The position numbers and the translations under genes are program-made. 60,850 bases of DNA from Patescibacteria group bacterium (GTDB taxonomy: Bacteria > Patescibacteriota > Minisyncoccia > Minisyncoccales > JANBVM01): contig JANBVM010000001.1 in assembly GCA_024239015.1 (NCBI GenBank), positions 1-60,850 of the forward strand, written 5' to 3'. The notes beneath the pieces are model-generated. The model saw only the letters and a program-made list of their open reading frames with translations. It was not told where the DNA came from and made no database searches. Positions 2,598 to 36,985 of the stretch are shown piece by piece (the first letter of the stretch is position 1; each line of letters opens with the position of its first letter).

Positions 2598-2612
2598 TTC
2601 GTGAAACGGTTA
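2598..2612 (-). repeat. island motif, form B (TAACCG-TTTCACGAA read on the minus strand)
   Basis: The plus strand reads TTCGTGAAACGGTTA, an exact copy. It lies in the divergent spacer 2342-2872. Confidence 0.9.
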
Positions 2613-2735
2613 CGTGCTGAAAAGTACACTCAAATTGTCTATCTATTGAAAAATATAACCGGAGTTTTTTGTAAATTAAATCTTGGATTATTGAAATTCA
2701 TGATAAAATAAATGTTAAATTAGGTTCTGAATGGA

Positions 2736-2750
2736 TTCGTGAAATAACCG
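2736..2750 (-). repeat. island motif, form A (CGGTTA-TTTCACGAA read on the minus strand)
   Basis: The plus strand reads TTCGTGAAATAACCG, an exact copy. It starts 138 nt to the right of the 2598 copy. Confidence 0.9.
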
Positions 2751-2872
2751 ATAATTATTTGTCATTCGAAAAATCAGTATAGTATTAGTCTCATAAGAAG
2801 TAAATACCTTAATATTTTTATAAAACTCTGATATATTATTTTATAGATATCAAAATTTCATGGAGGTTAAAA

Positions 2873-3382
2873 ATGGTAAAAAAAACTATTTTTAAATTCA
2901 TTCAAGTTCAAAATAAATTAGGATTATCCGATTTAAATGATAGATTAGAACTAGATTTTGATAAAAGATTACTCATTCAGAAAGTTTTTTATTTTTTAAT
3001 TAAATTAGGTTTTGATTTTAAGCTAAAATATAACTTCTATAAGTATGGTCCTTATTCTCGAGAATTAGCTGATATTTATTTTGAATCCTCAGAATTTATA
3101 AGTATGAAAATTCATGAAAATTCAGAATATCATTTTAGTAGTAATGATGAGTTCGCTCTTACTAAACTTAAGAGTCTTTTGGAAAAATGGGGTGAGAACA
3201 CTCAAATTTGGGAATATTATTCAAGTCTCTTATTTATTCATGAAGATATGTATTTTAGAATATGGAACATTGAAAATGTAAAAGCTAAAATTGCTAGAGA
3301 GAAGCATGAACTTTTTGATAGATTCAAATTTGATTCAGTACTCCAAGAATTAAAAGAACTTGGTTTAATAACTAAACATTAA
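2873..3382 (+). CDS. Panacea/SocA-like (DUF4065-type) putative antitoxin
   Basis: 169 aa. LLIQKVFYFLIKLGFDFKLKYNFYKYGPYSRELADIY fits the K-L-x-K-L-L-Y...GP-x motif pair of Panacea domains. GGAGGT lies 8 nt before the ATG. The stop is 1 nt before the next start. Confidence 0.45.
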   Translation: MVKKTIFKFIQVQNKLGLSDLNDRLELDFDKRLLIQKVFYFLIKLGFDFKLKYNFYKYGPYSRELADIYFESSEFISMKIHENSEYHFSSNDEFALTKLKSLLEKWGENTQIWEYYSSLLFIHEDMYFRIWNIENVKAKIAREKHELFDRFKFDSVLQELKELGLITKH

Positions 3383-3383
3383 T

Positions 3384-4787
3384 TTGATTGATGTGAAGCG
3401 AATATTTGACCCCATTTATGGATTAATTGAACTTAATGACATAGAATCTCAAATTTTAGATACACCATTATTACAAAGGTTAAGGTATATAAGACAATTA
3501 AGTTTAGCTGAATTTGTATACCCTACAGCTACTCATAATAGATTTTCTCATTCTTTAGGAGTATTTCATATAACTGATAAAATAGGGAATATATTACAAA
3601 AATTTGACAATAAATTCATGAGCAATTACTATATAGATAATTTAAAGATGGCAGCTCTTTTACATGATATTGGACATTTGCCACTTTCCCATGCACTCGA
3701 ATTTTCTGAAAAAGAAGATGTTTGGAATAGATTACCTTCTTTCTTAAAATTAAATCATGAAGATTTAGGAGTGTATCAGATAAAAAATTCATACTTAAAA
3801 AATATCATAGAGAGTGTTGACGATCGTTATGATATCGATTTGATTTGCAATTTAATACAGGGTAATGATATAGCTGATAACCCAATTTTAAATAGAGTAA
3901 TAAATTGGGAATTAGATGCAGATCGACTGGATTATTTATTAAGAGATACATATTTCACAGGTGTAAAATTTGGTAGTATTGATTTTGATTATTTGGTAAG
4001 TAATTATGAAATATATAAAAATGAAAAACTTGTAGTTAACAAAAAAGCTTCAAGATCCATTGAAAATTTTCTAATTGCTAGATTCTCTTTATATGATCGA
4101 GTTTATACGCATAAAAATATATCCTATTATAATTTCTTCCTAAAAAACGTTACTAGTTTATTAATCGAAAATAGTCTATTTCCTTTATTTAAGAATGACT
4201 TAACATTTGATGAAATAATTTTAGATGAAGAAAAATCTGAATTAATTTATGAGTTAACTGATTTTTCATTATATGATAAACTCCTTCAATATTATTATCA
4301 TCAAAGGACCTTAGAAGAAAAAAGTGAAAGTATCTTACTAAATTTAAATTCAGTGTTATTTCGGAAAAAGAATCATAATATTTTTCAATATCAAAAAATA
4401 ACAAACCAAAAATCTGGCATTATTGAGTTGGTTGATGATAAAGTACTAACTTTAATAGAAAGTTTAAATGAAGAGTATAAAAACCAGATATATTTAGATA
4501 ATCCTAAAAATAGATTTACAAAATATCAATCAGTATTTTATCCTTCGATTGGATTAGATCAAGAAAAAATAAATGAAATTAAAGAACAAGAACTAAAATC
4601 AATCTGGATTACATCGGATAACGGTAATCCTCAATTATTTTACGAATGGACTGGAACTTATTTTAGAGAATTATATTCTTTTAAAAATATAAAATACTTA
4701 ATATATCTTGAAAAGAATAAAGAGAAATTAGCGGAAAAATATAGATCAATTGAAAATGATATAAAGAATCAGATAAATAAACTTTAA
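3384..4787 (+). CDS. HD-domain phosphohydrolase, SAMHD1/dGTPase-like (COG1078-type)
   Basis: 467 aa, TTG start. RLRYIRQLSLAEFVYPTATHNRFSHSLGVFH, AALLHDIGHLPLSHALE and DADRLDYLLRDTYFTGV form the canonical H...HD...D motif set of dNTP triphosphohydrolase-like HD proteins. Confidence 0.8.
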   Translation: MIDVKRIFDPIYGLIELNDIESQILDTPLLQRLRYIRQLSLAEFVYPTATHNRFSHSLGVFHITDKIGNILQKFDNKFMSNYYIDNLKMAALLHDIGHLPLSHALEFSEKEDVWNRLPSFLKLNHEDLGVYQIKNSYLKNIIESVDDRYDIDLICNLIQGNDIADNPILNRVINWELDADRLDYLLRDTYFTGVKFGSIDFDYLVSNYEIYKNEKLVVNKKASRSIENFLIARFSLYDRVYTHKNISYYNFFLKNVTSLLIENSLFPLFKNDLTFDEIILDEEKSELIYELTDFSLYDKLLQYYYHQRTLEEKSESILLNLNSVLFRKKNHNIFQYQKITNQKSGIIELVDDKVLTLIESLNEEYKNQIYLDNPKNRFTKYQSVFYPSIGLDQEKINEIKEQELKSIWITSDNGNPQLFYEWTGTYFRELYSFKNIKYLIYLEKNKEKLAEKYRSIENDIKNQINKL

Positions 4788-4822
4788 AGGAATTCTTTTT
4801 TATTAATGATTTGATATTTCAA

Positions 4823-4837
4823 TTCGTGAAACGGTTA
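4823..4837 (-). repeat. island motif, form B
   Basis: The plus strand reads TTCGTGAAACGGTTA, an exact copy. It lies 36 nt after the HD gene stop. Confidence 0.9.
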
Positions 4838-4960
4838 TCAAATTTAAAATAGAAATTAGAGCTCTGTTTCAACCGAATAGCGAATTCTATTAATTTAAAT
4901 CCTGATAATTTTAAACCAAATAATAATATTATAATGAAAAAGAGTACAAAGGAACTTGAA

Positions 4961-4984
4961 TTCGTGAAATAACCGTTTCACGAA
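4961..4984. repeat. complete 24-bp palindromic form of the island motif: TTCGTGAAA-TAACCG-TTTCACGAA
   Basis: Perfect 9-bp inverted arms flank a 6-bp asymmetric spacer. It contains form A (4961-4975, minus sense) and form B (4970-4984, plus sense) overlapping. It starts 138 nt to the right of the 4823 copy. It lies in the convergent spacer between stops at 4787 and 5040. Confidence 0.9.
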
Positions 4985-5039
4985 CTCACTTTCTTCTAGC
5001 TTGATATCTTCAAATCATTCTTAATCGTGAAAATTCTAT

Positions 5040-5882
5040 TTATTTATATCCATAAAAAACTTTCCAGAATTGGTCATCGAGAGGTATATTTCGAGGAAAA
5101 ATCATCATGCCATATCCTTTAAGTGTATAACCATCATGCCTATAAAACTTGTCTTCAATTAAAGTCATCAAATCATCACAATAGTCATTAAAAAATGCAC
5201 CTGGGCTTAAACCAAAATACTTCATAGCATATCTTCTCACCAAGTATGCTACGATGTCTGCTAATTGAACACCATTATGAATTATTGAATCAACAATAAA
5301 AGGTGTTTCTATAACTTGCTCGGGAAATTCATCCCAACCTTGTCCCGTACCATATTTTATGAAAGATTCTATTTCGTGACGTTTTTGTTCATCAAATTCG
5401 GGATCAACCGAATCCATTACTATCATTATATGCTGGTCTTTTTTTGGATGATTATCCATTACATAGCGGTTTAAACGTTCAATTAATAGTTTAAATGCCC
5501 AATTTGCTACTCCTACGTAATTTCCCTTCATAAAATGTTCCTTATGTACCACTATTGATACAATTTTTATAAACAATTTTGATAAAAAGGAATATATTTC
5601 CCGCCAGATACTTCTTAATTTATCGTCATCATCTCCAATAGACTTATAATATCCTTCCTTACGCGAAATTTCTTTCATGTGAAGTTCAAAATCTCCTGGT
5701 GGATCTTTCTGAAGTCCTTTATTTCTCACAAGATCCCAGATTTTACGTTTTAAATTTTTAATTTCCTGATGAATCCAATTCCAATATTGTTCATGAATAA
5801 TTAGAGCTGTTAAAACATAGAGTTTATTTTGTTTATTGTTAATATCCTTATTACCTGATTCATCAGCATAAGCGAAATACAT
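5040..5882 (-). CDS. DUF3800-family protein
   Basis: 280 aa. The N-terminal YADESGN and the C-terminal GVQLADIVAYLV are the two hallmark motifs of DUF3800. Confidence 0.6.
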   Translation of the reverse strand: MYFAYADESGNKDINNKQNKLYVLTALIIHEQYWNWIHQEIKNLKRKIWDLVRNKGLQKDPPGDFELHMKEISRKEGYYKSIGDDDDKLRSIWREIYSFLSKLFIKIVSIVVHKEHFMKGNYVGVANWAFKLLIERLNRYVMDNHPKKDQHIMIVMDSVDPEFDEQKRHEIESFIKYGTGQGWDEFPEQVIETPFIVDSIIHNGVQLADIVAYLVRRYAMKYFGLSPGAFFNDYCDDLMTLIEDKFYRHDGYTLKGYGMMIFPRNIPLDDQFWKVFYGYK

Positions 5883-6062
5883 TAAACTCTAACCACTTGA
5901 TTGTTATTTTAGTTTAATCTTTCACAATATTTATAGAATCTCCTTTCTTGGAGTTTTTATATAGGTTAAAATTTGGAAAGGAACAAGAATGAAAAAAGTT
6001 GATTTACTACCAAAATTTGCCAAAAATTTCGATAGGATTTTATAGACAGTGAAAGAATAGTT

Positions 6063-6740
6063 TTAAACACGAAGTCTTCTTCTATTTGGGTCTTTAATAC
6101 CAATATAACGTCGAATTCCAGAATGACCTCCTTCATTATATACATACCACAATCCCTCATCCCTTATTTTGTATTTTAAAGAGCAATTTTTACATTTTAT
6201 ATCGATATAATCTACTTTATCTTGGAAATCGATTTCTCCTTCACATTTAATGCATTTCATTTTTTCTTTTAATAGGAGCAATCTAAGACTTTCAATAAAG
6301 ATTAGATAGTTCTTGTTTATCATCGAATTAATTACATCCCAGGTTGAGTCCTTCAATGAATTAGAATTAAACACAGATATAGTTGAGCGTGAAGGTTTAT
6401 AGAATGAGATTTTTGGGTCAAAATATTGTCCGAGAGATCTTACAGATATGATATATATTTCTTTCTTTACTAAATCTGCTTTTATTACCTTGGCTGTTAG
6501 GTCAACTTGTTTAAAATACTTTTTGTTTTTAAACCAGTAAAGCATATAATCATAAGATTTTATTAACAATTTCTCAAATACTCGAAATAATATTAATGTT
6601 CCCAATGCTGATAGAATTGAGTATAAGACGATTAATGGATTAAGTGAATCTGTAAGAAAATTAAAAAGCCAAGTGAAAAGGCCTGAAAACAATGCACCTA
6701 TTACTACATATGTCAAATCATTTTTATCTGTTTTTTCCAT
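6063..6740 (-). CDS. hypothetical membrane protein with C-terminal zinc ribbon
   Basis: 225 aa. Two N-terminal hydrophobic helices (VVIGALFSGLFTWLFNFL, IVLYSILSALGTLILF). CIKC-x17-CKNC lies near the C-terminus. Confidence 0.5.
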   Translation of the reverse strand: MEKTDKNDLTYVVIGALFSGLFTWLFNFLTDSLNPLIVLYSILSALGTLILFRVFEKLLIKSYDYMLYWFKNKKYFKQVDLTAKVIKADLVKKEIYIISVRSLGQYFDPKISFYKPSRSTISVFNSNSLKDSTWDVINSMINKNYLIFIESLRLLLLKEKMKCIKCEGEIDFQDKVDYIDIKCKNCSLKYKIRDEGLWYVYNEGGHSGIRRYIGIKDPNRRRLRV

Positions 6741-6874
6741 CTTAATTCCTCAATAGTCCCTTTCTATTTTTACATTAATGTGTATAAAATTAAAATACTA
6801 TTATTAAGTGAATCTTTACCTTTTTTCATTATTTATTCTTTCAAATCCTTATTGTATTTTTATCAGCAAGATTT

Positions 6875-7186
6875 TCATAAAGGAATAATCTTAACACTAT
6901 GACTATACTGCTTTTTCATGTAGTTAGTTATTTCGAAATTTTTTTTTTGATATTCATCACTTAACTTAATTAAATGTCCTTGAGTGGGAATAATAGAAAT
7001 GAATGCTTTAATCTCGTCTTTAAAATCACTTACATTAATTTTATTCTGATTATCCACAAGCATTTTAAATGAATCAATTTGTTTTTGAATGAATTCAATA
7101 TTAGTTTCTTCTTTATTAATCTCTTTATACCAATGATACTTAACAAATGGAACTTTAATTTCTACATCGTGTCTTTTTTTTATCAT
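6875..7186 (-). CDS. hypothetical protein
   Basis: 103-aa ORF with ordinary composition. No motif recognised. Confidence 0.4.
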   Translation of the reverse strand: MIKKRHDVEIKVPFVKYHWYKEINKEETNIEFIQKQIDSFKMLVDNQNKINVSDFKDEIKAFISIIPTQGHLIKLSDEYQKKNFEITNYMKKQYSHSVKIIPL

Positions 7187-7382: not shown

Positions 7383-7397
7383 CGGTTATTTCACGAA
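7383..7397 (+). repeat. island motif, form A
   Basis: CGGTTATTTCACGAA, an exact copy, in the divergent spacer 7187-7613. Confidence 0.9.
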
Positions 7398-7613
7398 TGC
7401 GCACCTATCTCCTTTTTCAACTTAACCTTTTTTAAGTCATCATATCATATCTCTCCTCTCTAATTAAATTAATTATAGTTTTTCATATACTTCCCCTTAA
7501 TTTTTAGCTTTTTAAATAAAAAAAATCGGTTGTTATACAGGAATTTACTATTGATAATACTTAAATACGATTGATGCTTACAATAATACATTAGATAGTA
7601 AAATTAATATGAT

Positions 7614-7928
7614 GTGAAAAAAATGCGTAAAAATATGGTTCGCTTGTCTGATATTGAGCATGCTCAACTTGAAAAGGCGAGAGAGGAACTTATGAAGAGG
7701 GGACTTGAAAATTTACCTGAAATTAAGCCTATCTGCCCAAGTTGTAGAAGTGAGTTGGATGATTTTAAAATTAACTCAAAATATATAAAATGTTCTAATT
7801 GCGGTTATGAAGAGAAGAGCACTTCACTTACTGCTATAGGAAGTTTTGCTTTTGGAGCAATTGTAGGATTAGGTGCCGCTGCACTAATTTACCTTTTATC
7901 TAAAGACAAGAAAGAATCACAAAAGTAG
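7614..7928 (+). CDS. small membrane-anchored zinc-ribbon protein with RHH-like N-terminus (copy 2)
   Basis: The ORF track starts at GTG 7614. By comparison with copy 1 (MRKNMVRLSDIEHAQLEKAREELMKRGL...), the ATG at 7623 is the likelier start. CPSC-x14-CSNC plus a C-terminal TM helix. Confidence 0.6.
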   Translation: MKKMRKNMVRLSDIEHAQLEKAREELMKRGLENLPEIKPICPSCRSELDDFKINSKYIKCSNCGYEEKSTSLTAIGSFAFGAIVGLGAAALIYLLSKDKKESQK

Positions 7929-8431
7929 TGAAATTTATGTTAAAGATATTTATCTCTCATAGCACAAGAGATTATAAATTAGTTACAGCATTAGAAGTAT
8001 ATTTAAAAATAAAAGGTATATTGACCTATATTGCTGAAAATGATTGTCAAGTTGGAAGATCCTTATCAAGTAAAATAATTGAAAATTTAGAGAAAAGTGA
8101 TTACTTTTTAGTTCTATATACTAATAAAGGAAAAGAATCAGATTACGTCAATCAAGAAATTGGATATTGGATAAAAGCTCGCGGTTTTACTAATCTTATC
8201 CCTTTAGTTGAAAAGGGAATAATACCAGAAGGCTTCTTATCTGGATGTGAATATTTTGAATTGGATCCTAAAAATCATAATATTGGTTTGGATAAAATTG
8301 TTGATTACTTAGTACAAAAGAAAGAGGAATATGAAATAGAATTATTTGGAGATAACATAGTTGTAGGTTTAGGACTCTTAGGGCTTACGGCTTTGATACT
8401 ATATGGAATATATGTAGTTGTGAAAGAATAG
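7928..8431 (+). CDS. TIR-like domain protein with C-terminal transmembrane anchor (copy 2)
   Basis: KIFISHSTRD and SDYFLVLYTNKGKESDYVNQEIGYW, with C-terminal LGLLGLTALILYGIY. The GTG start overlaps the upstream TAG by 1 nt. An ATG at 7937 is an alternative start. Confidence 0.6.
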   Translation: MKFMLKIFISHSTRDYKLVTALEVYLKIKGILTYIAENDCQVGRSLSSKIIENLEKSDYFLVLYTNKGKESDYVNQEIGYWIKARGFTNLIPLVEKGIIPEGFLSGCEYFELDPKNHNIGLDKIVDYLVQKKEEYEIELFGDNIVVGLGLLGLTALILYGIYVVVKE

Positions 8432-8645
8432 AACAATTATTATACCTTACATTTGAATAGGTTAAAAGCAAATTTTAATTTCTCATTTTGAATTACCTAA
8501 TAAATAAATATGTGCTAAAACCTTTTGTGAAATTGCTTAGAAACAAAGAATTTGAGTTCAGTTTAAATTGGTTGTAATTATAATTATATTAATTAACCAA
8601 TTACAAGTGAACTAATTAATTAAGGGTAAAGAAATCCAAGATCTT

Positions 8646-10072: not shown

Positions 10073-10838
10073 CTTCAAAAAATGTCCATTACAAATTATT
10101 AACCCATGAGCGTATGTTAAGTTATATATCTTAAAAGAAAATAAAGATAAGCATGTTAAACTTAATAATATTCTGAAATATAAGAAAGTTCTTTTTCTAA
10201 CTGTTATAATTGTGCTAGAAATTATTTTATTAGTTTTATTTACAATCCTGTTTATTACAACTAACATAGAATTTTATAAACTTATAGTTGAATTATTAAG
10301 AAATTTTATAATATTAACCAGTGTAGTAACCGCTTTAACAATCCCATTTGTTATGAAAGATATTGAAGAAAAGAAAAGAGAAGTGGAGTTAAGAGATCGA
10401 ATAGAAACAGTTATCAATGAACTTAAAAATTATTTTGAAATTATTATCTCTTCTAAATTTGAAGAACTCCCAAAAAAAAATCTTTACATTCATCCTCAAT
10501 TTCAATTTTTTAAATCCATTGGTAGGAAAGAACCTGAATTCTTAAAGAAACTCGGTATCGATATTTCAAGTTATACTAGTACTTCAAGAAGTGGAACTCA
10601 ATCTGAAGGAGGTAGTTTAATTATCCTAAACATTTATAGATTACGTGGTGGTTATCAACCAACTCTTATTTTTATAAGCACAGAAAATGAATTTTCGGAC
10701 TTACCGGATTCGTATGAAATTCTTTTAAAAAAAATCATTGAAAACGCAGAAAAATTTTTTTCCGTAACATTAGATAAAAATTTATGCTCCTTATCAGATG
10801 ATCTCAAATCAGGTTATTTAGAAGTAACAAAACGTTGA
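10073..10838 (+). repeat. direct repeat copy 1 (~770 bp: gene plus ~90-140 nt upstream), partner at 25543..26315
   Basis: The upstream block AAATTATTAACCCATGAGCGTATGTTAAG matches AAATTATTAACCCAATAGCGTATGTTAAG, and homology continues through the CDS. Proteins are about 80% identical by eye. Confidence 0.8.
10212..10838 (+). CDS. hypothetical membrane-anchored protein (paralog of 25629..26315)
   Basis: 208 aa from GTG. The frame is open from 10110 and still encodes the paralog N-terminus (HVKLNNILKYKKVLFLTVII versus MIKINDILKYKIVLFLFVII), but the paralog ATG aligns with CAT here. One N-terminal TM helix. Confidence 0.5.
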   Translation: MLEIILLVLFTILFITTNIEFYKLIVELLRNFIILTSVVTALTIPFVMKDIEEKKREVELRDRIETVINELKNYFEIIISSKFEELPKKNLYIHPQFQFFKSIGRKEPEFLKKLGIDISSYTSTSRSGTQSEGGSLIILNIYRLRGGYQPTLIFISTENEFSDLPDSYEILLKKIIENAEKFFSVTLDKNLCSLSDDLKSGYLEVTKR

Positions 10839-16082: not shown

Positions 16083-16097
16083 CGGTTATTTTGCGAT
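16083..16097 (+). repeat. island motif, form A variant
   Basis: CGGTTATTTTGCGAT, 12/15 matches to form A. Intergenic. Confidence 0.6.
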
Positions 16098-19930: not shown

Positions 19931-19945
19931 TAACCGTTTCACGAA
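19931..19945 (+). repeat. island motif, form B
   Basis: TAACCGTTTCACGAA, an exact copy, in the convergent spacer 19879-20326. Confidence 0.9.
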
Positions 19946-21739: not shown

Positions 21740-21754
21740 CGGTTATTTTACGAA
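21740..21754 (+). repeat. island motif, form A variant
   Basis: CGGTTATTTTACGAA (14/15). It ends 2 nt before the stop codon of 21757..23178. Confidence 0.8.
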
Positions 21755-21756
21755 GA

Positions 21757-23178
21757 TTAAACTTTTTTTTGTCTTAATTCCTTCGGAGGATTTTTCATGT
21801 TCCATTGACTCCAAGCGTATCCTCGAACATTTTCCCATCCATACTTTCTCATAAGTTCCAATGTAACTTCCTTTAGGTCAGCATTCTCTTTTACTTCTTC
21901 AAGGGCTATTATCTTATTCATTTGTGTCCATTTATTCCCCCCTTTTTTCAGATTACTAACTCTTGTGTTTACATTTGAAGATTTACCCACATACCATTTT
22001 CCATGTTCAAGTCGAAGGATAAAAACAGCTGTCGATCTTGTCCGATCCTCGTTTTCTTTTAAATATTCTAAACCCCCATCTTGACTTCTAATGCACTCCT
22101 GTATTTTTTTCGGGATATAAGTATTATAAGAATCACTAAAACTTGTTCCCCTTACACATCTCCAGCCATAATTTGTTATATACCGAACCATAACTTCGGT
22201 AAGATCTCCATCTTCGATAATCTCTTGAACTTTAATTACTTTACTATCTCTTGTCCATATGTTTCCCTTTCCTTCTCTATGTGCTGCGATAGTGGATGTT
22301 GTATTTTTAGATCTTCCAATCCACCACTTATTATTTGCTAATTCTAATACAAAAATAGGTCTTCTCTTTCTCGAAGTCCTTTTTTCGGCTGTAGCAATTT
22401 TTAATATATTATCATTTGTAATTTTGATTGGAGTTTCTTTCTGATCAAGTACCATTTTTTTATTTTGACTCTTTACTGGTGTTAGGGTACCCTTCACATT
22501 TTTGCTGATTCTTATTGGGTATGTAAATTTACAATCAGGGTAACCTCCGCACCCTAAAAAGATTCCACGGCTTCCAGTTCGTTCATGCATAAGGCTTCCA
22601 CAAACTGGACATAGAATATTTCTAGCGCTTTCAATATTAAAAGAAAATCTACAATTCGGAAAACCATTACAACCAAAAAATTTCCCATTTTTACCAATAT
22701 AAATAGCTAATTTCTTATTACAATTAGGACATACTTTAGGGGGAGTTAATTTTTGATTTTGTTCCTTAGTAGTTAATGTTTCCTTAATTTCATTGAAATT
22801 TAGATTTCTTTGTAAATCATTATCAGGTCGGCTTGCTCCTATTTCTCTTTTCTTAAAATCCGGATTCAATTCTAATTTTATATCGAAGAAAGAGTTGAAG
22901 TCGGAATCATCTAAAAATCCATCCTCCTCATAAATTTCAAGAATTTTTCTTAAATCTTCATTTTCTTCTACGTGCTCTTTTAAAAAACTTAAATCTGTTT
23001 TATCTAGAATATATTTTCCCTCTTCTTCAGCTTTCTCTAATTCTTTCTCTAATGATTCATATTGTTTTTCAGTTAAGAATTTATTTTTAGTAAAAAAGCT
23101 GAAGAGATCTTCAAAAAACGGATTATATTTAGCGAAAACTTCTAGCCACTGTTCTTCTTCTTCGCTCAGTTCCTTCAT
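21757..23178 (-). CDS. multidomain protein: novel N-domain + two topoisomerase-type C4 zinc fingers + two GIY-YIG-like domains
   Basis: 473 aa. CPNCNKKLAIYIGKNGKFFGCNGFPNCRF and CPVCGSLMHERTGSRGIFLGCGGYPDCKF fit zf-C4_Topoisom. IFVLELANNKWWIGRSKN...YGWRCVRGTSFS and VFILRLEHGKWYVGKSSNVNTRV...YGWENVRGYAWS are tandem GIY-YIG-superfamily-like modules. The N-terminal ~105 aa are homologous to 50256..50846. Confidence 0.55.
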   Translation of the reverse strand: MKELSEEEEQWLEVFAKYNPFFEDLFSFFTKNKFLTEKQYESLEKELEKAEEEGKYILDKTDLSFLKEHVEENEDLRKILEIYEEDGFLDDSDFNSFFDIKLELNPDFKKREIGASRPDNDLQRNLNFNEIKETLTTKEQNQKLTPPKVCPNCNKKLAIYIGKNGKFFGCNGFPNCRFSFNIESARNILCPVCGSLMHERTGSRGIFLGCGGYPDCKFTYPIRISKNVKGTLTPVKSQNKKMVLDQKETPIKITNDNILKIATAEKRTSRKRRPIFVLELANNKWWIGRSKNTTSTIAAHREGKGNIWTRDSKVIKVQEIIEDGDLTEVMVRYITNYGWRCVRGTSFSDSYNTYIPKKIQECIRSQDGGLEYLKENEDRTRSTAVFILRLEHGKWYVGKSSNVNTRVSNLKKGGNKWTQMNKIIALEEVKENADLKEVTLELMRKYGWENVRGYAWSQWNMKNPPKELRQKKV

Positions 23179-25509: not shown

Positions 25510-25524
25510 TAACCGTTTCACGTA
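25510..25524 (+). repeat. island motif, form B variant
   Basis: TAACCGTTTCACGTA (14/15), in the divergent spacer 25413-25628, about 20 nt left of the 25543 repeat boundary. Confidence 0.8.
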
Positions 25525-25542
25525 AATGATTAAGCAAGTCAT

Positions 25543-26315
25543 CTTCAAAAAAAAATATTAATCTTTATAAATTATTAACCCAATAGCGTATGTTAAGATA
25601 AATATTTTAAAAGAAAATATAAATTAACATGATAAAAATTAATGATATTCTGAAATACAAGATAGTTCTTTTTCTATTTGTTATTATTGTGGTAGAAGTT
25701 ATTTCATTAGTATTATTTACAATCATGTTAATTACAACTAAAATAGAATTTTATAAACTTATCATTGATTTATTAAGAGATTTAATAATATTAACCAGTG
25801 TAGTAACCGCTTTAATAATCCCATTCGTAATGAAAGGTATTAAAGAAGAGAAACGAGAAGTAGAGTTAAAAGATCGAATAAAAACGGTTATTAATGAACT
25901 TAAAAATTATTTCGAAATTATTATCTCTTCTAAATATGAGGGATTACCAAAAAAAAATCTTTACATCCCTCCTCAATTTCAATTTTTTAAATCCATTGCA
26001 AGAAAAGATCCTGAATTCTTAAAAAAACTCGGTATTGATATTTCACTTTTCACCAGTACTTCAAAAAGTGGAACTCAATTTGAAGGAGCTACTTTAATAA
26101 TATTAAATATTTATAGATTACGTGGTGGTTTTCAACCAACTCTTACTTTTATAAGCACAGATAATGAACATTCTGAGTTACCGGATTTATATGAAATTCT
26201 TTTAAAAAAATTCATTGAAAACGCGGAAAAAGATTTTTCCATAACATTAGATAAAAATTTATGCTTCCTATCAGACAATCTTAAATCAAGCTATTTAGAA
26301 GTAATCAAACATTGA
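25543..26315 (+). repeat. direct repeat copy 2, partner of 10073..10838
   Basis: See 10073..10838. Confidence 0.8.
25629..26315 (+). CDS. hypothetical membrane-anchored protein (paralog of 10212..10838)
   Basis: 228 aa with an intact ATG. TM helix (IVLFLFVIIVVEVISLVLFTIMLI). About 80% identical to the 10212 product. Confidence 0.55.
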   Translation: MIKINDILKYKIVLFLFVIIVVEVISLVLFTIMLITTKIEFYKLIIDLLRDLIILTSVVTALIIPFVMKGIKEEKREVELKDRIKTVINELKNYFEIIISSKYEGLPKKNLYIPPQFQFFKSIARKDPEFLKKLGIDISLFTSTSKSGTQFEGATLIILNIYRLRGGFQPTLTFISTDNEHSELPDLYEILLKKFIENAEKDFSITLDKNLCFLSDNLKSSYLEVIKH

Positions 26316-26466
26316 AATTTTTATAACATAATTGCCTAAAAGAGTCATCTATTCATTAATATTAGTATATCTCATTTAATTCTCGATAGAGAACTATAGA
26401 TATATTGGAATCTTTATTAATAATTAGCATTAATATTTTCTTTTTATTATATATTTGAAAGAGCTT

Positions 26467-26481
26467 AGGTTATTTCATGAA
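26467..26481 (+). repeat. island motif, form A variant
   Basis: AGGTTATTTCATGAA (13/15), in the convergent spacer 26316-26513. Confidence 0.6.
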
Positions 26482-26513: not shown

Positions 26514-26717
26514 TTATCTTTTGTGATACTCTTTACATATAGTAATTAAATTCTTAGATTCGTTGTTTAAGCGATCTCCATCAATATGGTGAACATCCAA
26601 ATCGGTAGTTTTCCCATACCTTTGACATTTGTTTCCATCACGCGTTTTTATTTCCCGTTTTAATTTAACTGTAAATCCATGAGTATATCGGGAGCGTGCA
26701 TTAAGTTTAGGAAGCAT
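26514..26717 (-). CDS. small HNH endonuclease-domain protein (partly degenerate zinc ligands)
   Basis: 67 aa. RDGNKCQRYGKTTDLDVHHIDGDRLNNESKNLITICKEYH has the H-N-H residues in register, but CxxC is reduced to CQRY and CKEY. It overlaps the methylase 3' end by 11 nt. Confidence 0.6.
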   Translation of the reverse strand: MLPKLNARSRYTHGFTVKLKREIKTRDGNKCQRYGKTTDLDVHHIDGDRLNNESKNLITICKEYHKR

Positions 26718-27999
26718 TAATATAAGATAGAATATCTTTACTTTTTCTCATAGAATCCCCATATTTGATTGTTTTAGCATTTTTAAAAAAATTTGAAATC
26801 TGAAATTCCTTTAAAATTATTTGGTCATACGATATAATTTGAAATGGTTTTGATGACTCCATATGTTCAAGAAAATTCTTTATTAAATCTATAAATTCTT
26901 TTTTATTTGAAAAATTTGAATCTATTATAATTATATAGTTTATGTAGTGATTCCACTTATCTTTTTCAACTAAATAATTTTGCGTAGGATTTTCTTTAAT
27001 TTTGGATTTTAGTTCTTTTATTATCTTTTCCTCATTAAATTCTTTGATTTCGATTAATAAATAATCTAATATTATTTGATAATTTTTCTCATTTTCTAAT
27101 ATTATGATTCCTTTCTGTTTTTGATTTTCAAATTTAATTTTTAATCCTTCTTTTTTAGATTTTTGAAAAATTACATATAACATTAACTGGTAATCTCTAA
27201 AGTAGCCTATTCTACCTTGTTTTATTTTATCCTCGATAATTTTTTCAAAATCTTTATTGATTTCATAACCAACCCCATTTCGACAGAGAGATTTTGCTAC
27301 TTTCAGCGTTGTTCCTGATCCTAAGAAGGGATCTAGTATTTTATCGCCAATAAAAGAAAACATCCTTATTAACCTATAAGGTAATTCTTCAGGAAACATA
27401 GCAATATGCTCTTTTTGGATTATTCCTGGAAATCTCCAATGACCCACAAACCACTTTTTCCATTCGGTTAATGAAATTTTTGATAATTCTTTTATTTGAC
27501 GTTCAACTTTCCTCGCTTTACCATTATGTTTTTTAAGGATCAATATATGTTCATAATCAAAAGTCAATAGCCCATTCCTTGGATAATAAATAGAGCCCAT
27601 CAATGAACAACCACCTGTAGTGTTAGTAGTACTTACTTTTTGCCAAATGATATCTCCTAAAAAATCAAAACCTAAATCCAAACAATCATTTATGGTTTGA
27701 CTTGCTATAGATAATATCATATATCGCCCATATTCTTTCGTCCGTAAATATTGATCTCCAATATTTATTATCATTCTACATTGTGGTTCAAGAACTCGGT
27801 AGCATTCTTTCCAGACTTGCTTTAATCTCTCAAAATAAATATTAAAAGAATCTGAGAATCCTATTTGTTCATATGATCCATAATCTTTTATTTTTCCGTA
27901 TGGAGGAGAAGTTATTATCAATTGAACGGTATTATTATCAATTTCTTCCATATTTTCAGAAGATTTGAAATAAATTCTTGGCTCCTCTATATTAAACAA
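26707..27999 (-). CDS. beta-class DNA methyltransferase (N4-C/N6-A family, pfam01555-like) with ~180-aa C-terminal extension
   Basis: 430 aa. Motif IV IITSPPYG precedes motif I DPFLGSGTT, which is the beta-class order. SPPY is more typical of m4C enzymes. The C-terminal third has no recognisable motif. Confidence 0.8.
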   Translation of the reverse strand: MFNIEEPRIYFKSSENMEEIDNNTVQLIITSPPYGKIKDYGSYEQIGFSDSFNIYFERLKQVWKECYRVLEPQCRMIINIGDQYLRTKEYGRYMILSIASQTINDCLDLGFDFLGDIIWQKVSTTNTTGGCSLMGSIYYPRNGLLTFDYEHILILKKHNGKARKVERQIKELSKISLTEWKKWFVGHWRFPGIIQKEHIAMFPEELPYRLIRMFSFIGDKILDPFLGSGTTLKVAKSLCRNGVGYEINKDFEKIIEDKIKQGRIGYFRDYQLMLYVIFQKSKKEGLKIKFENQKQKGIIILENEKNYQIILDYLLIEIKEFNEEKIIKELKSKIKENPTQNYLVEKDKWNHYINYIIIIDSNFSNKKEFIDLIKNFLEHMESSKPFQIISYDQIILKEFQISNFFKNAKTIKYGDSMRKSKDILSYINAS

Positions 28000-28304
28000 T
28001 TCTTTTTCCTCTTAAGAATGGAACATTGAATAAAATTACGTTTTATTATCATTTATACTTATTAAAATTATCATATTAAAAGAAAAATAACAAATGATTT
28101 TTTATGTAATTTTACTTTTTTCATATCTATTAACTATAAATGGAATTATCATTTATTTAAAAAAGCACTGAGAAGATATTTATCTATTTTTGATAATTAG
28201 ATTTAGAGGAAACAAATTGTAGTAATGGATATTTTAAGCAGGTATTTGGGCATATTAAAAAATAATAAACTTTGTTGATTTCTCGGTTAAATTTGTTGAT
28301 ATCT

Positions 28305-28319
28305 CGGTTATTTCACGAT
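28305..28319 (+). repeat. island motif, form A variant
   Basis: CGGTTATTTCACGAT (14/15), in the divergent spacer 28000-28516. It is preceded by a 21-nt tandem duplication that contains a second CGGTTA (28284-28289). Confidence 0.85.
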
Positions 28320-29450: not shown

Positions 29451-29465
29451 TAACCGTTTCACGAA
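29451..29465 (+). repeat. island motif, form B
   Basis: TAACCGTTTCACGAA, an exact copy, 65 nt after the stop of 28517..29386. Confidence 0.9.
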
Positions 29466-30456: not shown

Positions 30457-30465
30457 TCTCAAATA

Positions 30466-30849: not shown

Positions 30850-30851
30850 GA

Positions 30852-32026: not shown

Positions 32027-32042
32027 AATATTTTTAAGCAAT

Positions 32043-32057
32043 CGGTTATTTCATGTA
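32043..32057 (+). repeat. island motif, form A variant
   Basis: CGGTTATTTCATGTA (13/15), 17 nt after the RNase III-like stop, in a convergent spacer. Confidence 0.6.
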
Positions 32058-32173: not shown

Positions 32174-34462
32174 TTATGAAGAATCATCCTTCAAATCATT
32201 AAATAAAAATTCTATAATCTCATCCAATTCTTTTCTTTCTTCTTTCTTTATAGTTTGAAGTAACTCAAATTCTTTATTATCTTTTTCATCAAAGAAGTCT
32301 TGATAGTGTTCTTCTAAATCTTGAGCATCGATTAATGGATATTTAAATTCAAAATCTCTGAATAATTGATTTAACCTATCAACATTATCATTAAAATCAC
32401 CCATTAAGTCAATTGCATCGGATTCAACCCATTCTTTTTCGTCATCTAATATTTCTGTAATCTTTAGAAATATGCTTTTGTTACCTCTAAAAACATCTTG
32501 AAATTCTCTCGTGTAGACTCTAAATATAAGTTCTAGAATAAAAAGGAATTCTTCTATAGGATCAGTTACATTATCATATTGAGGTAAGTAAGCGTCTATT
32601 AGTTTTATAATGTAATCTTTTATCCAAACTATCTTGACTTTAAAGTTTTTAAAATTAGAAAAAAATAACCAGAATTGATAGAAATTTAGAGTTTGATTTT
32701 TAAATTTATTAAAGAATTCAATACAACTTAGTTCTTTGAGTAAAAATTTTATATCTTTATCAAATATTTTTTCGGGATAATTTTTTGTTATGATAGCTAA
32801 ATAATCACTAATTTCTTCTATTGAATCATCCTGGATTATTTTCTTTAAGATTAATTTTTTCTTTTCTTCATTTAAAACTTGATTTTGAATTAAACTTTCA
32901 ATAAAAATTGATCCCCCTATCGTCATCATAAGTTCTTGTATACTTCTATCTTCTTTCAATAAAGAGTTAATAATATCTATTATTGAAGGATGATAGAATA
33001 TAATCTTAGTACTTTCCCAGCTAGAAATTATTTTAATATAAGTTCCATTTAATCTAAAGGTACATTGATTGAACTTCCCGATAAAATCTCTATTTAATTC
33101 TTTTAAGATTTGAATATATCTCTTTTCAAAGTAATCGATTTCCGAATTCATCCTAATTGAGAATAATGTTATAATAAATATCTTTTCTTCATCACTTAAT
33201 GAGTAGAAATCTTTTATCCAAGATTTCTGGGGTTTTTTTATAAAATCAATCACCTCATTTTTGAAATCAATAAAAGAAATATTTCCACTTAATTTCGGAA
33301 TTATCATATTACATAGCTCTCTTATACTTTCTGGTGAATAGTTTGGATGATTAATTATTTCAAATTTTAATTTCAGAAGGAATTCTATAATTTTTTCATC
33401 ATATTTTTTAAAAAAAGTTGATGCTCTTATATGGTTATATAAAATATGTGCTTTTTCCAGTTTGGTAAGTTTCCCAACCTCAACAATTACACTACTAGGT
33501 TCGATAATTGCCTTTTGTTCTTCTAACTTAGTTTTTTCTAATGCTTCCATCAAAATACTAGATCGACTCGTCCATACTAGTTGATGATTGTTGTCAATTA
33601 ATTTTAGTATACTCGGTAAATCTTTAACCCATTCATTTGATATTTCTGGGATATATTGATTTTGACCAAAAACATCATCACATACTAGTATTTCTTTTTT
33701 CTTTTGATTAAAACATCTAAAAAATTCGACCGGTTTATTAATGTAAAAGAATTGGTGTTTATTTCCAATTTTAAAGAAGCTTATTGCTTCAGCTATTGTT
33801 GATTTTCCCATTTTTGGTGGTCCCTGCAAAATAACTAAATTATATTTATTGATTTTTTCAAGGGCTTCAAGAAAAATATTAGTTGTAGCAAAAGTTTCCA
33901 TATTATCTTTCAAATTCCTAATGTGGCCTCTAGATCTTTCAAGTACTTCTTTATTGAGCAAAGATTCAATATCTGCAAATTCAATTAATCTAGGAAACTG
34001 CCATCTAATTCTATCATGATCCCCCAAAAATGCACGAATTTGTGGAAAGTGGATAACTTGAAAATGTGAAATTTTAAAATTTTTAGATTCTTCCTCTAAC
34101 TTCTTAATGTCATTTATAGTAAAATCTACATTTGTTATATAGATATAATTATCACATTTATTACCATATTTTTTAATTATTTTATTAAGTTCCTTCCCTA
34201 CAACTTTAATTAATTCGTCCCTTACTACATTTTCTCCTCTCCTTATAAAATCTCTAAATTTTGACTGAAAAATCCATTTTCCAGACCATGGTTTCCTATG
34301 TGGGGGAAAAAAGGCTTCTCCTTTAAAATAAGCATCACGCCCAAAATCCTTAGTTCCTCCATAAAATTGAATAGCAAGACCTAATTGATTATTCAACATT
34401 ATTTGGATTAGTTTCTCGAAATCATATGCCCCAAGATTACATAGTTGGTTTTTATTTATCAT
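32174..34462 (-). CDS. Mrr-like restriction-endonuclease N-domain + P-loop (STAND/AAA-like) NTPase + helical C-terminal region
   Basis: 762 aa. YDFEKLIQIMLNNQLGLAIQFYGGTKDFGRDAYF...GKWIFQSKF fits Mrr_cat-type effectors. Walker A is LQGPPKMGKST and Walker B is ILVCDDVFG. About 400 aa of helical repeats follow. Confidence 0.6.
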   Translation of the reverse strand: MINKNQLCNLGAYDFEKLIQIMLNNQLGLAIQFYGGTKDFGRDAYFKGEAFFPPHRKPWSGKWIFQSKFRDFIRRGENVVRDELIKVVGKELNKIIKKYGNKCDNYIYITNVDFTINDIKKLEEESKNFKISHFQVIHFPQIRAFLGDHDRIRWQFPRLIEFADIESLLNKEVLERSRGHIRNLKDNMETFATTNIFLEALEKINKYNLVILQGPPKMGKSTIAEAISFFKIGNKHQFFYINKPVEFFRCFNQKKKEILVCDDVFGQNQYIPEISNEWVKDLPSILKLIDNNHQLVWTSRSSILMEALEKTKLEEQKAIIEPSSVIVEVGKLTKLEKAHILYNHIRASTFFKKYDEKIIEFLLKLKFEIINHPNYSPESIRELCNMIIPKLSGNISFIDFKNEVIDFIKKPQKSWIKDFYSLSDEEKIFIITLFSIRMNSEIDYFEKRYIQILKELNRDFIGKFNQCTFRLNGTYIKIISSWESTKIIFYHPSIIDIINSLLKEDRSIQELMMTIGGSIFIESLIQNQVLNEEKKKLILKKIIQDDSIEEISDYLAIITKNYPEKIFDKDIKFLLKELSCIEFFNKFKNQTLNFYQFWLFFSNFKNFKVKIVWIKDYIIKLIDAYLPQYDNVTDPIEEFLFILELIFRVYTREFQDVFRGNKSIFLKITEILDDEKEWVESDAIDLMGDFNDNVDRLNQLFRDFEFKYPLIDAQDLEEHYQDFFDEKDNKEFELLQTIKKEERKELDEIIEFLFNDLKDDSS

Positions 34463-34486
34463 ATCTTTTCAACATATCCTTTAATT

Positions 34487-34723
34487 CTAAATTCTTAGAT
34501 CTAATATTCGACCATTAATCCTAAGCCATCTTTTCCACTTTTTATAGGTTGGAAAAAGTGATTCTACATTTTTCCAGAATCCTAATGAATGAGAAGATAG
34601 TAATGTGATAGCGGATTTAACCTCATTATAAATAGGCGACATCCCAACACCGATGGTAATCATTGTTTTATAACCACAATTTTTACATTCTATCTCATAT
34701 TCACTGCCCATTATATTCATCAA
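34487..34723 (-). CDS. small hypothetical protein (single CxxC), upstream of the STAND-like gene
   Basis: 78 aa, with CKNCGYK near the N-terminus. It lies 24 nt upstream of 32174..34462 on the same strand. Confidence 0.35.
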   Translation of the reverse strand: MMNIMGSEYEIECKNCGYKTMITIGVGMSPIYNEVKSAITLLSSHSLGFWKNVESLFPTYKKWKRWLRINGRILDLRI

Positions 34724-34924
34724 GCAATATTGAATTGGAAAAGTTGTTTATTTCTAAGCATAAATTATATTATTTTTAATGAAAATATAAATAATAGGTT
34801 TTAATAACTTTTTGTGAAAGAATGTCAATAAGAATAGCAATATTTTAATTTCTCTAATTGTATTAATGAATTGTAAGGCTATAATTAACCAAAAATCTAA
34901 AAAAATCTTGTAAAAATAGATATC

Positions 34925-35437
34925 ATGCCGAATTTAAACAATTTAGTCGAAAAAAAAAGAGAAAAGGGAGAATGGTTTGATAGGTTCAAAAGAGAAACGA
35001 CAAAAGGACTAATCATTGATTTTTCTTACGAAGATTCTAACATTGGTAAATGGAAAATAGAGGTAAAACATTCTGAGGAATACAATAACGCGGGTATCAC
35101 AGCTCCATGGAGTAATAATGAATCCAAAATCGCAAATCAATTAAAAAAAAAATCAATGATCTTCCAGTTAACAGAAAATGACGAATCTTCCTTTTATGTT
35201 CCATTTGGAATTGGATATACGGATGGAGAAAGGTTTAGAACGCGACGTATTTCTGACCAGTCAGAGTTGTCGAGTGAAATAAAATCTAATTTTGAAATTG
35301 AAAAATATCAACAAGTAAGAAGCAATCCGAGTAAACAATTAAATAATAAATTAGTTTGCGTATGTAAAAAAGACGATTACAAAAAGATGGCTTTCGCGTT
35401 TATATTACAACGAATTTATCCCGTTTTAGGAAAATAA
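34925..35437 (+). CDS. hypothetical protein
   Basis: 170-aa ORF with no motif recognised. Confidence 0.4.
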   Translation: MPNLNNLVEKKREKGEWFDRFKRETTKGLIIDFSYEDSNIGKWKIEVKHSEEYNNAGITAPWSNNESKIANQLKKKSMIFQLTENDESSFYVPFGIGYTDGERFRTRRISDQSELSSEIKSNFEIEKYQQVRSNPSKQLNNKLVCVCKKDDYKKMAFAFILQRIYPVLGK

Positions 35438-35649
35438 AAAAAGTATCCTTTTTGTCATACTTCTTTTGTCTTTTTAGATTTTATAGCAAATACCGATGAG
35501 GAGGAGGTATTACACCATAATATATAAATACCTCTAAAAATTGAAAAAGGAATAAATGTCAATATATTCTTGAATTTAACTATAAAGGATTATTATTAGA
35601 TGAGCTCGAAAAAACAATAAAAATCCGAATTGTCAGGAGGTAGATTCTA

Positions 35650-35925
35650 ATGAATAATGAAAACGGATCAAAAAAAGAAGAGTTTGAAGGATTTCGTTAC
35701 AATACTTCTATTAGTCTAGATTTTCATGAGTACGATAAACTGCAAGAACTTAGTGAAGAACTGATTAGCACCGGGAAGGCAATTAAGATAGTATTTGATT
35801 TGGGAACTGGTTTTGATTTTGACGTAAACAATATTCATTTTCTAACAGATGATATAAAAATTGTAGAAGAAACTAATTTTCTTTGGTTTGATTATAAACT
35901 TGAAAAATTTGTTGGAGAAGATTAA
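35650..35925 (+). CDS. hypothetical acidic protein
   Basis: 91 aa. AGGAGGT lies 9 nt before the ATG. Confidence 0.45.
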   Translation: MNNENGSKKEEFEGFRYNTSISLDFHEYDKLQELSEELISTGKAIKIVFDLGTGFDFDVNNIHFLTDDIKIVEETNFLWFDYKLEKFVGED

Positions 35926-36122
35926 AATGTCTAAAGATAAAAATTATAGTATGTAATAAAAAATTCAATGAATTCAAAAAATTAAGTTGGATTTGAGTAG
36001 AATTAAAGAAACTGAAGACGGCTTCATTTATGAAGATAAAGATGGCAAACTATGGAAACTTCATTTCGATAAAAATAATGATAATAGAAAATAATTTAAA
36101 GTAAAAAACACCTCAAGGATAG

Positions 36123-36818
36123 ATGAAAACAAGTATAAAAGCTGAATATGCCATAAAACTCTTGAGAAAGATATCTTCACTCCAGAAGAAGATAGGAAAG
36201 ATTCCAGATCTTCTTTTCGATGCAAATGAAAAAATTCGTCCAGAAGGAATAGGTTTTGATGTGAATCGCTTTCTAAAGGTTTTTGATAAGATTCAATTAA
36301 GAGATGGATTTATACTTGACTATTTCTACCGTTCTGGAGGTTTAGGGGGAGAACCGTTTATCTTTACTCGAAAAAAAGACAATCCCAAACTTTCAGCTGA
36401 CGGAAATCTTAAGCCCCGACCACCTTTAAATGATATTATCATTGAAATCACTCCAGAGTCTTTCTTTCAACTTGCTGTTTTTTCTCAAGTTGTCTCACAA
36501 TTTTATTTATCTTGGCACGCAAATTATAACGACCATCAATTTATATTTGGCTCTGAAATTGTTGAATATTTATTAATGGACATCCCAGAAGACTTCAGAG
36601 ATAACTTTGGTATCAACATGAAGGACAGAGAGAAATTAAGAGCTATGTCCTTTGAACCTCAAGTTAATATTAAAGAAGAGGGTGCAGAGGTTCGTTGCGT
36701 GATGTTTTCAAAGTGGTTGGGATTTTATTATAACATATTTGTTATAACTTGGCCTAATATAACTATTGAAAATAGTAGAGATATAATCGTACCTTATGAT
36801 TGTGGAATCCTCTTTTAG
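36123..36818 (+). CDS. hypothetical protein
   Basis: 231-aa ORF with ordinary composition and no motif recognised. Confidence 0.45.
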   Translation: MKTSIKAEYAIKLLRKISSLQKKIGKIPDLLFDANEKIRPEGIGFDVNRFLKVFDKIQLRDGFILDYFYRSGGLGGEPFIFTRKKDNPKLSADGNLKPRPPLNDIIIEITPESFFQLAVFSQVVSQFYLSWHANYNDHQFIFGSEIVEYLLMDIPEDFRDNFGINMKDREKLRAMSFEPQVNIKEEGAEVRCVMFSKWLGFYYNIFVITWPNITIENSRDIIVPYDCGILF

Positions 36819-36970
36819 ATTTGGAATGTAAAAAAAATATGATACATAAAAAAAGTGATATTACTCTTAATTTTCTTCATTTCTCAAGCCTCTAAACATA
36901 AAACTTTGTTTCTCTTCATCTATTTCACCTAAAATTTCTCCATCTTCTATCATCATTTTTTATTGCATGA

Positions 36971-36985
36971 CGGTTATTTCACGAT
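36971..36985 (+). repeat. island motif, form A variant (last copy in the window)
   Basis: CGGTTATTTCACGAT (14/15), 126 nt upstream of the helicase gene start. Confidence 0.85.

Follow-up and report, generated by a model that had tools for sequence, protein, structure and literature searches.

A 15-bp intergenic site that probably delimits mobile gene cassettes in Loki-type Asgard archaea

We analysed a 60,850-nt stretch of DNA (contig JANBVM010000001.1 of assembly GCA_024239015.1, hereafter the window), in which short, conserved, co-oriented 15-bp sites lie between genes. From its sequence and the company it keeps, this 15-mer is probably an asymmetric site-specific recombination site that delimits mobile cassettes, a trans-acting recombinase exchanging DNA at its hexamer. 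Comparison with other loci established the site itself, the grammar of the arrays that it forms, its conservation, and the fact that homology between relatives breaks at the hexamer. The window belongs to an Asgard archaeon of the Promethearchaeota (Loki) type. Eukaryotes have no closer known relatives than the Asgard archaea, whose large variable genomes acquire and reshuffle genes in ways that are poorly understood. A first-pass annotation of the window, made from the letters alone, had described the 15-mer in two forms at the boundaries of gene modules and proposed that it marks recombination boundaries of a defence island.

The site and the homology breakpoints at its hexamer

The site consists of a hexamer, CGGTTA or TAACCG, with a 9-bp arm, TTTCACGAA, abutting it on the 3' side, giving form A (CGGTTATTTCACGAA) and form B (TAACCGTTTCACGAA); the two hexamers are reverse complements of each other. 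Counting a copy at position 397 and both halves of a palindrome at 4961-4984, the window, which has a G+C content of 28%, contains 16 sites. With up to three mismatches allowed, 13 form-A and 8 form-B matches were obtained, while 100 dinucleotide-preserving shuffles gave a mean of 1.6 matches per form (maximum 5) and never equalled the observed counts, in agreement with the earlier estimate that such a word should be rare by chance. The bare arm occurs 10 times, compared with 0.69 occurrences expected. Overlaying the sites on the open reading frames (ORFs) of the window placed all of them in intergenic DNA, as had been claimed, although this makes up just 19% of the sequence; the one exception is the copy at 397, which overlaps a dubious 61-residue ORF. 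Position 4984 separates the minus-strand sites, all to its left, from the plus-strand sites, all to its right. This polarity had also been noticed, and the minus-strand run was found to extend beyond the window, with five further copies within 4 kb of its left end in the corresponding scaffold (L004; loci of the data set are designated L and a number). Between 37 and 60.8 kb, no copy with two or fewer mismatches was found, again as first described.

Evidence for exchange at the site came from its flanks. We compared 358 unique site contexts, 35 nt on each side, in all pairs and at a threshold of at least 70% identity. Homology was restricted to one side of the site in 1,215 pairs and was present on both sides in only 7, two of which are near-identical resamplings. 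Variant arms such as TTTCGCGAA and TTTCACGTA were identical in 40% of the pairs with homologous downstream flanks, compared with 3% of those with homologous upstream flanks and 4% in the background. Variant arms thus travel with the downstream flank: the arm is part of the 3' module, and exchange takes place within the hexamer or at its border. Over 45 A and 44 B contexts, position frequencies carried information neither 5' of the hexamer nor 3' of the arm, and the possibility of a second, weaker arm 5' of the hexamer was therefore rejected.

Whole segments between sites behave in the same way. Inter-site segments that recurred at 70-97% identity and at least 80% coverage had changed neighbours in 35 of the 36 gene-module comparisons that could be evaluated, and in all 177 comparisons of the ~153-bp non-coding unit that runs from an A to a B site (the E element), the homology often reaching within 0-7 nt of both ends. 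The window contains one complete gene module of this kind on its plus strand (25510..26481), in which a 228-residue membrane-protein gene is enclosed by a B site at 25510-25524 (14/15) and an A site at 26467-26481 (13/15). It recurs in L022 (B at 5305 to A at 6284) with 82.7% identity, and homology stops 9 nt and 5 nt from the hexamers. A module with a 120-residue gene, found in L019 and L021, has its limits 1-3 nt from both hexamers and lies in opposite orientations in the two loci relative to a shared Na/Ca-exchanger gene. L069 and L116 are 99.4% identical over 2.5 kb and become unrelated right after ...TACGTGAAA-CGGTTA-TT. The comparison of the L003 island with that of L004 and the window was only partly informative, some of its breakpoints lying in duplicated MNT genes, away from sites. 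The first-pass annotation had proposed synteny with relatives as the test of its cassette-boundary hypothesis, and these data support that hypothesis: homology in relatives breaks at the motif.

Asgard arrays, spacers and polarity switches

An A site followed about 138 nt on by a B site on the same strand is a highly specific pair, present three times in the window and its flank (at 137-138 nt), and was used as a search pattern. Among species-representative genomes, 19 stretches matched, 17 of them from Asgard metagenome-assembled genomes (MAGs) labelled Promethearchaeota (the Asgard phylum containing the Loki-type class), Hodarchaeota, Hermodarchaeota or 'uncultured archaeon'; the two bacterial matches had no other copies and fit chance expectation. 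A further 98 stretches were found in metagenome contigs of the Joint Genome Institute, mainly from marine sediments and including the LAZR01 contigs of Loki's Castle. The apparent breadth over Asgard classes is not to be taken at face value, because positions 5523-8000 of L017 (Hermodarchaeota DZ1M.92) and 5523-8000 of L024 (Hodarchaeota DZ1B.338) are 99.96% identical over 2.5 kb, which suggests mis-binning or mislabelling. In 626 kb of non-redundant loci we counted 401 sites with two or fewer mismatches, of which 390 (97%) are intergenic; the site hardly varies across these stretches. By comparison, 775 kb of viral contigs selected for one exact chance match each yielded 5 further sites at the same stringency, and the pair pattern had no match in viral contigs. 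Two low-G+C IMG/VR contigs carry two sites each, L131 (7436-7450 and 8398-8412) and L144 (804-818 and 4459-4473), and one of them has been assigned to a giant-virus MAG; either Loki-type DNA was misplaced in these contigs or a mobile element truly carries the sites.

Transitions between consecutive sites in these 626 kb, read in motif orientation, follow a simple grammar. An A site was followed by a B site 145 times, at 130-145 nt in 127 cases and at longer distances in the other 18. The 86 transitions from B to A all spanned at least 490 nt (median 1.3 kb), and A to A (19) and B to B (20) occurred at variable distances. Canonical arrays thus read A-[~123 nt]-B-[gene(s)]-A-[~123 nt]-B-[gene(s)]. 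The two forms recognised in the first-pass annotation do exist; the A-to-B element that they bound, and the Asgard origin of the window, had been missed.

The E element is non-coding and of nearly constant size: 118 distinct copies measure 147-155 bp, and 114 of these 151-155 bp. Their interiors fall into about 26 sequence families, the largest of which (family 0) has 33 members from many metagenome samples and MAGs. The A arm of an element is family-specific and the B arm goes with the downstream module; since the two arms differ systematically, they were rejected as a target-site duplication. In none of the 118 elements is the interior flipped relative to the A and B ends, which also led us to reject an invertible promoter ('inverton'). 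RNAalifold was applied to 10 family-0 members and returned only a 6-bp terminal stem, with no covariation and no consensus structure. Six E elements folded as single-stranded DNA (ssDNA) no better than their shuffles (z from -1.45 to +1.25, with +0.96 and -0.43 for the window elements at 2598..2750 and 4823..4975, respectively). Together with the lack of any Rfam family at gathering thresholds in the window, these results led us to reject a structured RNA or an attC-like hairpin.

The gene modules, usually bounded by B and A, contain one ORF in 62 cases and two in 43. Their commonest genes encode MNT/HepT, PIN, RHH-type antitoxins, TPR/STAND, TIR, HD and restriction-modification proteins, mostly from toxin-antitoxin or defence systems; the first-pass annotation had missed that sites also flank non-defence genes such as one for a Na/Ca exchanger. 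ORFs run with the array in 127 cases and against it in 151. Gene stops face a site at a median distance of ~57 nt and gene starts at ~145-149 nt, about equally often, and the modules retain this ~145-149 nt of upstream DNA on the gene-start side. With ORF directions balanced and stops and starts faced equally, the sites are independent of transcription and fall beyond the limits of whole transcription units; the cassettes look self-expressed.

Each locus has a single site orientation except at switches. We found 18 palindromes, all at minus-to-plus (divergent) switches, in which an A and a B site on opposite strands share one hexamer; the exceptions are L093, where a minus-to-plus switch has no palindrome, and L089, the sole convergent switch. 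The existence of a 24-bp palindrome had been deduced from the two forms in the first-pass annotation, which did not mention that it is physically present at 4961..4984 of the window as TTCGTGAAA-TAACCG-TTTCACGAA, an exact minus-strand A site at 4961 overlapping an exact plus-strand B site at 4970. The two arms are identical inverted copies. On one strand a palindrome reads as A, in many cases with an E interior behind it and a B site ~138 nt away, and on the other as B, followed by genes; the alternation of A and B consequently runs outward on both sides. No neighbour gene recurs at the palindromes: DUF3800 adjoins that of the window and none of the others.

A recombination model, its rivals and known systems

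We propose that the site is made up of a 6-bp crossover hexamer and one recombinase-binding arm, TTTCACGAA, on its 3' side. Co-oriented sites would divide variable regions of Loki-type chromosomes into independently exchangeable modules of two kinds, namely non-coding A-to-B spacers of fixed length (~138 nt, or the 153-bp E element with both sites included) and self-contained cassettes, usually from B to A, that would hold one or two genes, of either orientation, together with the promoter and terminator that these need. Exchange would depend on a recombinase acting in trans, most likely of the tyrosine type by analogy, which would bind the arm specifically and the other side non-specifically, as proposed for Rci at sfx sites; acting at the hexamer, it would move, swap or flip modules. 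Hexamers in the same orientation would allow integration, excision or exchange, and sites of opposite arrays would give inversions; a minus-strand A and a plus-strand B on one hexamer would make a two-armed palindrome with two diverging arrays. The geometry is that of tyrosine-recombinase core sites, given the asymmetric 6-bp centre, the internal pseudo-dyad of the 9-bp arm (TTC-NN-GAA) and the inverted pair of arms in the palindrome. Given the unchanging A-B distance of about 13 helical turns, a higher-order complex may bridge the two arms of an E element. The participation of a recombinase, its family, and the roles of the palindrome and of the 138-nt spacing are what we infer from these comparisons.

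Several observations weigh against this interpretation. Searches of the window and of ~580 ORFs of the array loci, within ~630 kb, detected no tyrosine or serine recombinase (Pfam on all but a few window ORFs; Pfam on 89 locus ORFs, considering top families only; phmmer with XerD, Cre and gamma-delta resolvase against the ~580 ORFs, with nothing below E = 0.05). Divergent archaeal integrases would escape such searches, and as the loci are for the most part short contigs, genome-wide absence is not implied. A recombinase encoded beside the palindromes or in the arrays was thus rejected. The analogy to tyrosine-recombinase and pdif sites drawn in the first-pass annotation is tentative, and ordinary sites are one-armed. 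The A-B spacing, fixed at 136-139 nt across unrelated interior families, is without explanation. Pattern scans and blastn against phage and plasmid collections found no virus or plasmid bearing the sites, and carriage on such elements was rejected: lone 15-mer matches were isolated chance matches and blastn gave no relevant match. The support is comparative throughout, and includes no circular intermediate, empty site or read-level variant. Finally, under a simple inversion model convergent bare-hexamer junctions should equal palindromes in number, and the counts are 1 and 18.

A single A-by-B inversion yields a palindrome together with an armless convergent hexamer, and with a ratio of 18:1, and no bare intergenic hexamer right of 36985 in the window, we rejected such inversion as the main source of palindromes. 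Two alternatives may be considered. The palindrome could seed the arrays or serve as their insertion site, growth proceeding outward; a half-site circle recombining with the two-armed site would regenerate the two-armed site and add an outward-pointing half-site. Alternatively, in a shufflon-like arrangement, only sites across the switch would recombine, moving modules between arrays while the pattern is kept. Three cases are compatible with both: a Panacea-HD-E block is in the minus-strand array of the window and in the plus-strand array of L015, the 120-residue gene changes to the opposite array between L019 and L021, and the methylase module has opposite polarity in the window and L003.

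Of the other explanations, the most resilient, though still unlikely, is that E elements are non-autonomous transposons resembling miniature inverted-repeat transposable elements (MITEs) that home to a target word, single sites being empty targets or solo ends and gene modules being passive. The ~26 multi-copy families, with conserved termini, constant length and unrelated loci in many genomes, would suit such elements, as would the lack of a recombinase gene near them. Gene modules, however, also recur from hexamer to hexamer in varied neighbourhoods and orientations, and the plus-strand array of the window, with its ten sites, lacks E elements altogether. Moreover, E is never flipped, its polarity always being that of the array, and its arms, one following the family and the other the downstream module, are no target-site duplication. 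The terminal inverted repeats end at the 6-mer, leaving 9-mers that are direct repeats and differ systematically between the ends, unlike those of a MITE.

It is improbable that the word is the binding site of a regulator or of a chromatin or insulator protein, or a transcript boundary signal, with recombination incidental. A strictly intergenic, strongly conserved site with a pseudo-dyad arm could be expected of a bound protein, and an A-B spacing of ~138 bp, close to 13 helical turns, would suit protein bridging on one face of the helix. Conversely, sites occur in convergent, divergent and tandem junctions, as first noted, their polarity is independent of the gene strand, and stops and starts are faced about equally at variable distances. 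These properties also contradict the operator and the transcript-end signal that the first-pass annotation had listed as alternatives. A regulatory role leaves the homology breaks at the hexamer unexplained, and neither an Rfam match nor a predicted structure was found. A polar replication or segregation motif, like the FtsK-orienting polar sequences (KOPS) or Ter, with the palindrome as a dif-like or origin-like switch point, would account for the strict polarity and its flip at a 9-6-9 palindrome, and is scarcely credible given 18 palindromes in ~626 kb of sampled DNA, sites that are confined to islands (with none in 37-60.8 kb of the window) and exclusively intergenic, unexplained module shuffling, and a GC skew that follows gene strand only and does not switch at 4984, on which ground replication-linked polarity was rejected.

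Returning to recombination at the hexamer, arrays of cassettes moved by site-specific recombination are a known kind of system, and the present one is most likely an integron-like system that has not been described before. The searchable literature, including work on Asgard mobile elements and archaeal integrons, yielded no account of the motif. The chances are about even that Loki-type Asgard archaea possess a platform for gene capture and shuffling that parallels the integron, with half-sites whose 6-bp crossover can flip, obligatory 153-bp spacers, bidirectional arrays seeded by palindromes and a trans-acting recombinase, and that it organises much of their toxin-antitoxin and defence repertoire. 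The site permits asking whether such repertoires assemble by an integron-like mechanism of independent origin. It also gives a conserved, searchable handle for mapping variable islands in fragmented MAGs, predicts cassette boundaries, and enables a search for the recombinase, which could become a tool with a short asymmetric site. A cassette system would also account for assembly breaks and mis-binning in array regions.

The system resembles integrons, shufflons and pdif modules, yet departs from defining features of each. With integrons it shares an array of independently assorting cassettes with co-oriented recombination elements. The cassettes are in tandem, have a median length of ~1.3 kb, are rich in toxin-antitoxin and defence genes and often lack an adjacent integrase; the separators measure ~150 bp, with conserved ends bearing inverted cores, variable family-specific interiors and uniform orientation. 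However, attC is an imperfect palindrome of 57-141 nt that folds as ssDNA and E does not fold, and the core order CGGTTA...TAACCG (GTTA...TAAC) is the reverse of that in attC (RYYYAAC...GTTRRRY). Both ends of E exchange, so that gene and spacer separate. Integron cassettes are mostly co-oriented and promoterless, whereas those described here have random orientation and are apparently self-expressed, in arrays that diverge both ways from a palindrome. No IntI was found either, in the window Pfam scan or with XerD and Cre as phmmer queries against the array-locus ORFs. Asgardarchaeota have been reported to be enriched in clusters of attC sites without integrase (CALINs) (PMC9668308). The 15-mer is absent from the supplementary data on archaeal integrons that were covered here.

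Conservation in the sfx sites of the R64 shufflon is limited to the core and the right arm, and binding of Rci to the other side is presumed to be non-specific (PMC11852207). The site found here is likewise asymmetric, with a conserved crossover core, a single arm and a variable other side, and one enzyme would shuffle segments through many sites, as Rci does. In contrast to sfx sites, which lie inside the pilV gene cluster in alternating inverted orientation beside rci, the present sites are intergenic, chromosomal and co-oriented over tens of kilobases, their modules are whole genes, the core can face either way with respect to the arm, and no rci-like gene lies beside them.

The pdif sites of Acinetobacter plasmids, on which XerC and XerD act, are 28 bp long (11-6-11) with two distinct conserved arms, and flip as whole sites. 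Their modules are small and carry toxin-antitoxin or resistance genes, the orientation of the central region alternates, and the enzyme is encoded elsewhere in the genome. Integrative elements that exploit Xer at dif belong beside them in this comparison. Short sites whose 6-bp centre alternates in orientation thus bound small toxin-antitoxin modules in both systems. Here, by contrast, a single conserved 9-bp arm is never flipped within an array and the hexamer alone flips; two arms are found only in the 18 palindromes, as identical inverted copies rather than in a 28-bp site. The host DNA is an archaeal chromosome, and the fixed-length E element has no pdif counterpart.

The dRS3 repeat of Neisseria, a bacterial 20-bp inverted repeat, flanks RS families of variable segments of 50-150 bp without fixed length, and dRS3/RS mosaics are tied to rearrangement and insertion of foreign DNA. 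These mosaics, too, lie between genes, a short, highly conserved repeat alternating with variable segments that fall into families, but without strict array polarity or alternation with gene cassettes. As to Rfam RNA families, neither E nor the window matches a known family or has covarying structure.

Sites and genes of the window

All coordinates and match qualities given for individual copies in the first-pass annotation were reproduced. Its list was correct apart from one omission, a 13/15 form-A copy on the minus strand at 397..411 (CGATTATTTCACGTA), which recurs with its 3' flank at 5751 and 8350 of L004, and apart from the form-A-like match at 16083..16097 (plus strand, 12/15), which is weak and, taken singly, at chance level. 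The minus-strand array contains two 153-bp E elements with exact sites at both ends, one at 2598..2750 (A at 2736-2750, B at 2598-2612; interior of family 0) and one at 4823..4975 (A at 4961-4975, within the palindrome; B at 4823-4837), whose interior family is also found in L018, L021 and L023. In the plus-strand array, exact sites are located at 7383..7397 (form A), 19931..19945 (form B) and 29451..29465 (form B). Form-A sites matching 14 of 15 positions are at 21740..21754, at 28305..28319, adjoining the methylase module (26707-28189), and at 36971..36985, the final site of the array; a 13/15 form-A site is at 32043..32057. Isolated pieces of the site were also noticed and may be decayed sites or chance: a bare CGGTTA at 28284-28289, 21 nt upstream of the A site at 28305, a bare minus-strand arm at 55301-55309 in the intergenic region 55171-55346, where AAAAAC replaces the preceding hexamer, and an arm at 37550-37558 inside the large coding sequence starting at 37111.

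A Pfam scan showed the earlier gene annotations to be essentially right. It identified TIR, HD, DUF3800, PD-(D/E)XK, an SMC-like ATPase, GIY-YIG with a Zn ribbon, a NERD-UvrD helicase, HNH with an N6/N4 methylase, Panacea, RNase III and nSTAND3; the window contains no tRNA. The methylase module is inverted in the related locus L003, and the polarity of the neighbouring site is flipped too. The window corresponds to ENA scaffold ZHAO22-1_SAMN11268106 scaffold_45 (L004, 93.9 kb), and its left flank is 99.8% identical to CAZALK010000004.1 of the MAG GCA_964486045.1 ('uncultured archaeon'). In the related MAG, all-minus-strand sites run through other genes, among them a methylase, RE_MjaI and an SbcCD-like pair. 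The window and the ENA scaffold are not identical, since a 1.5-kb tandem duplication in the scaffold (7953-10311 of L004) is a single, collapsed copy in the window (1-840). The duplication contains an MNT gene, HepT, a 120-residue ORF and a further gene with a weak Pfam match to MJ0235, its flanking MNT copies are 99.5% identical, and the mismatch reflects either a strain or an assembly difference.

Several related genes were observed within the window. The operon of Zn-ribbon and TIR genes is present as an inverted duplication (1530-2497 and 7469-8441, 78.7% identical), roughly symmetric about the palindrome at 4961-4984. Paralogous membrane proteins of ~210-230 residues without a Pfam match are encoded at 10212-10838 and 25629-26315 and at 5466-6152 of L022; the copy at 25629 forms the complete B-to-A module, and no sites could be recognised on either side of that at 10212. 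Genes of the same family adjoin palindromes in L039 and L098. A 196-residue ORF (50256-50846) in the site-free right part is a paralogue of the N-terminal region of the GIY-YIG/Zn-ribbon protein (21757-23178). A three-gene operon (37111-46033; 1134, 882 and 947 residues), described as helicase-methylase-ATPase in the first-pass annotation only, begins 126 nt past the last site and is accompanied by Mrr and HD-CE/HATPase genes, making this stretch defence-like although site-free. Outside the window, a 164-residue JAB/MPN-like ORF and a 576-residue E1/E2-like ORF, judged by eye only, adjoin a plus-strand E element in L019 (4583-6837) and would be a Cap3/Cap2-like pair of the cyclic-oligonucleotide-based anti-phage signalling system (CBASS) type in an Asgard array.

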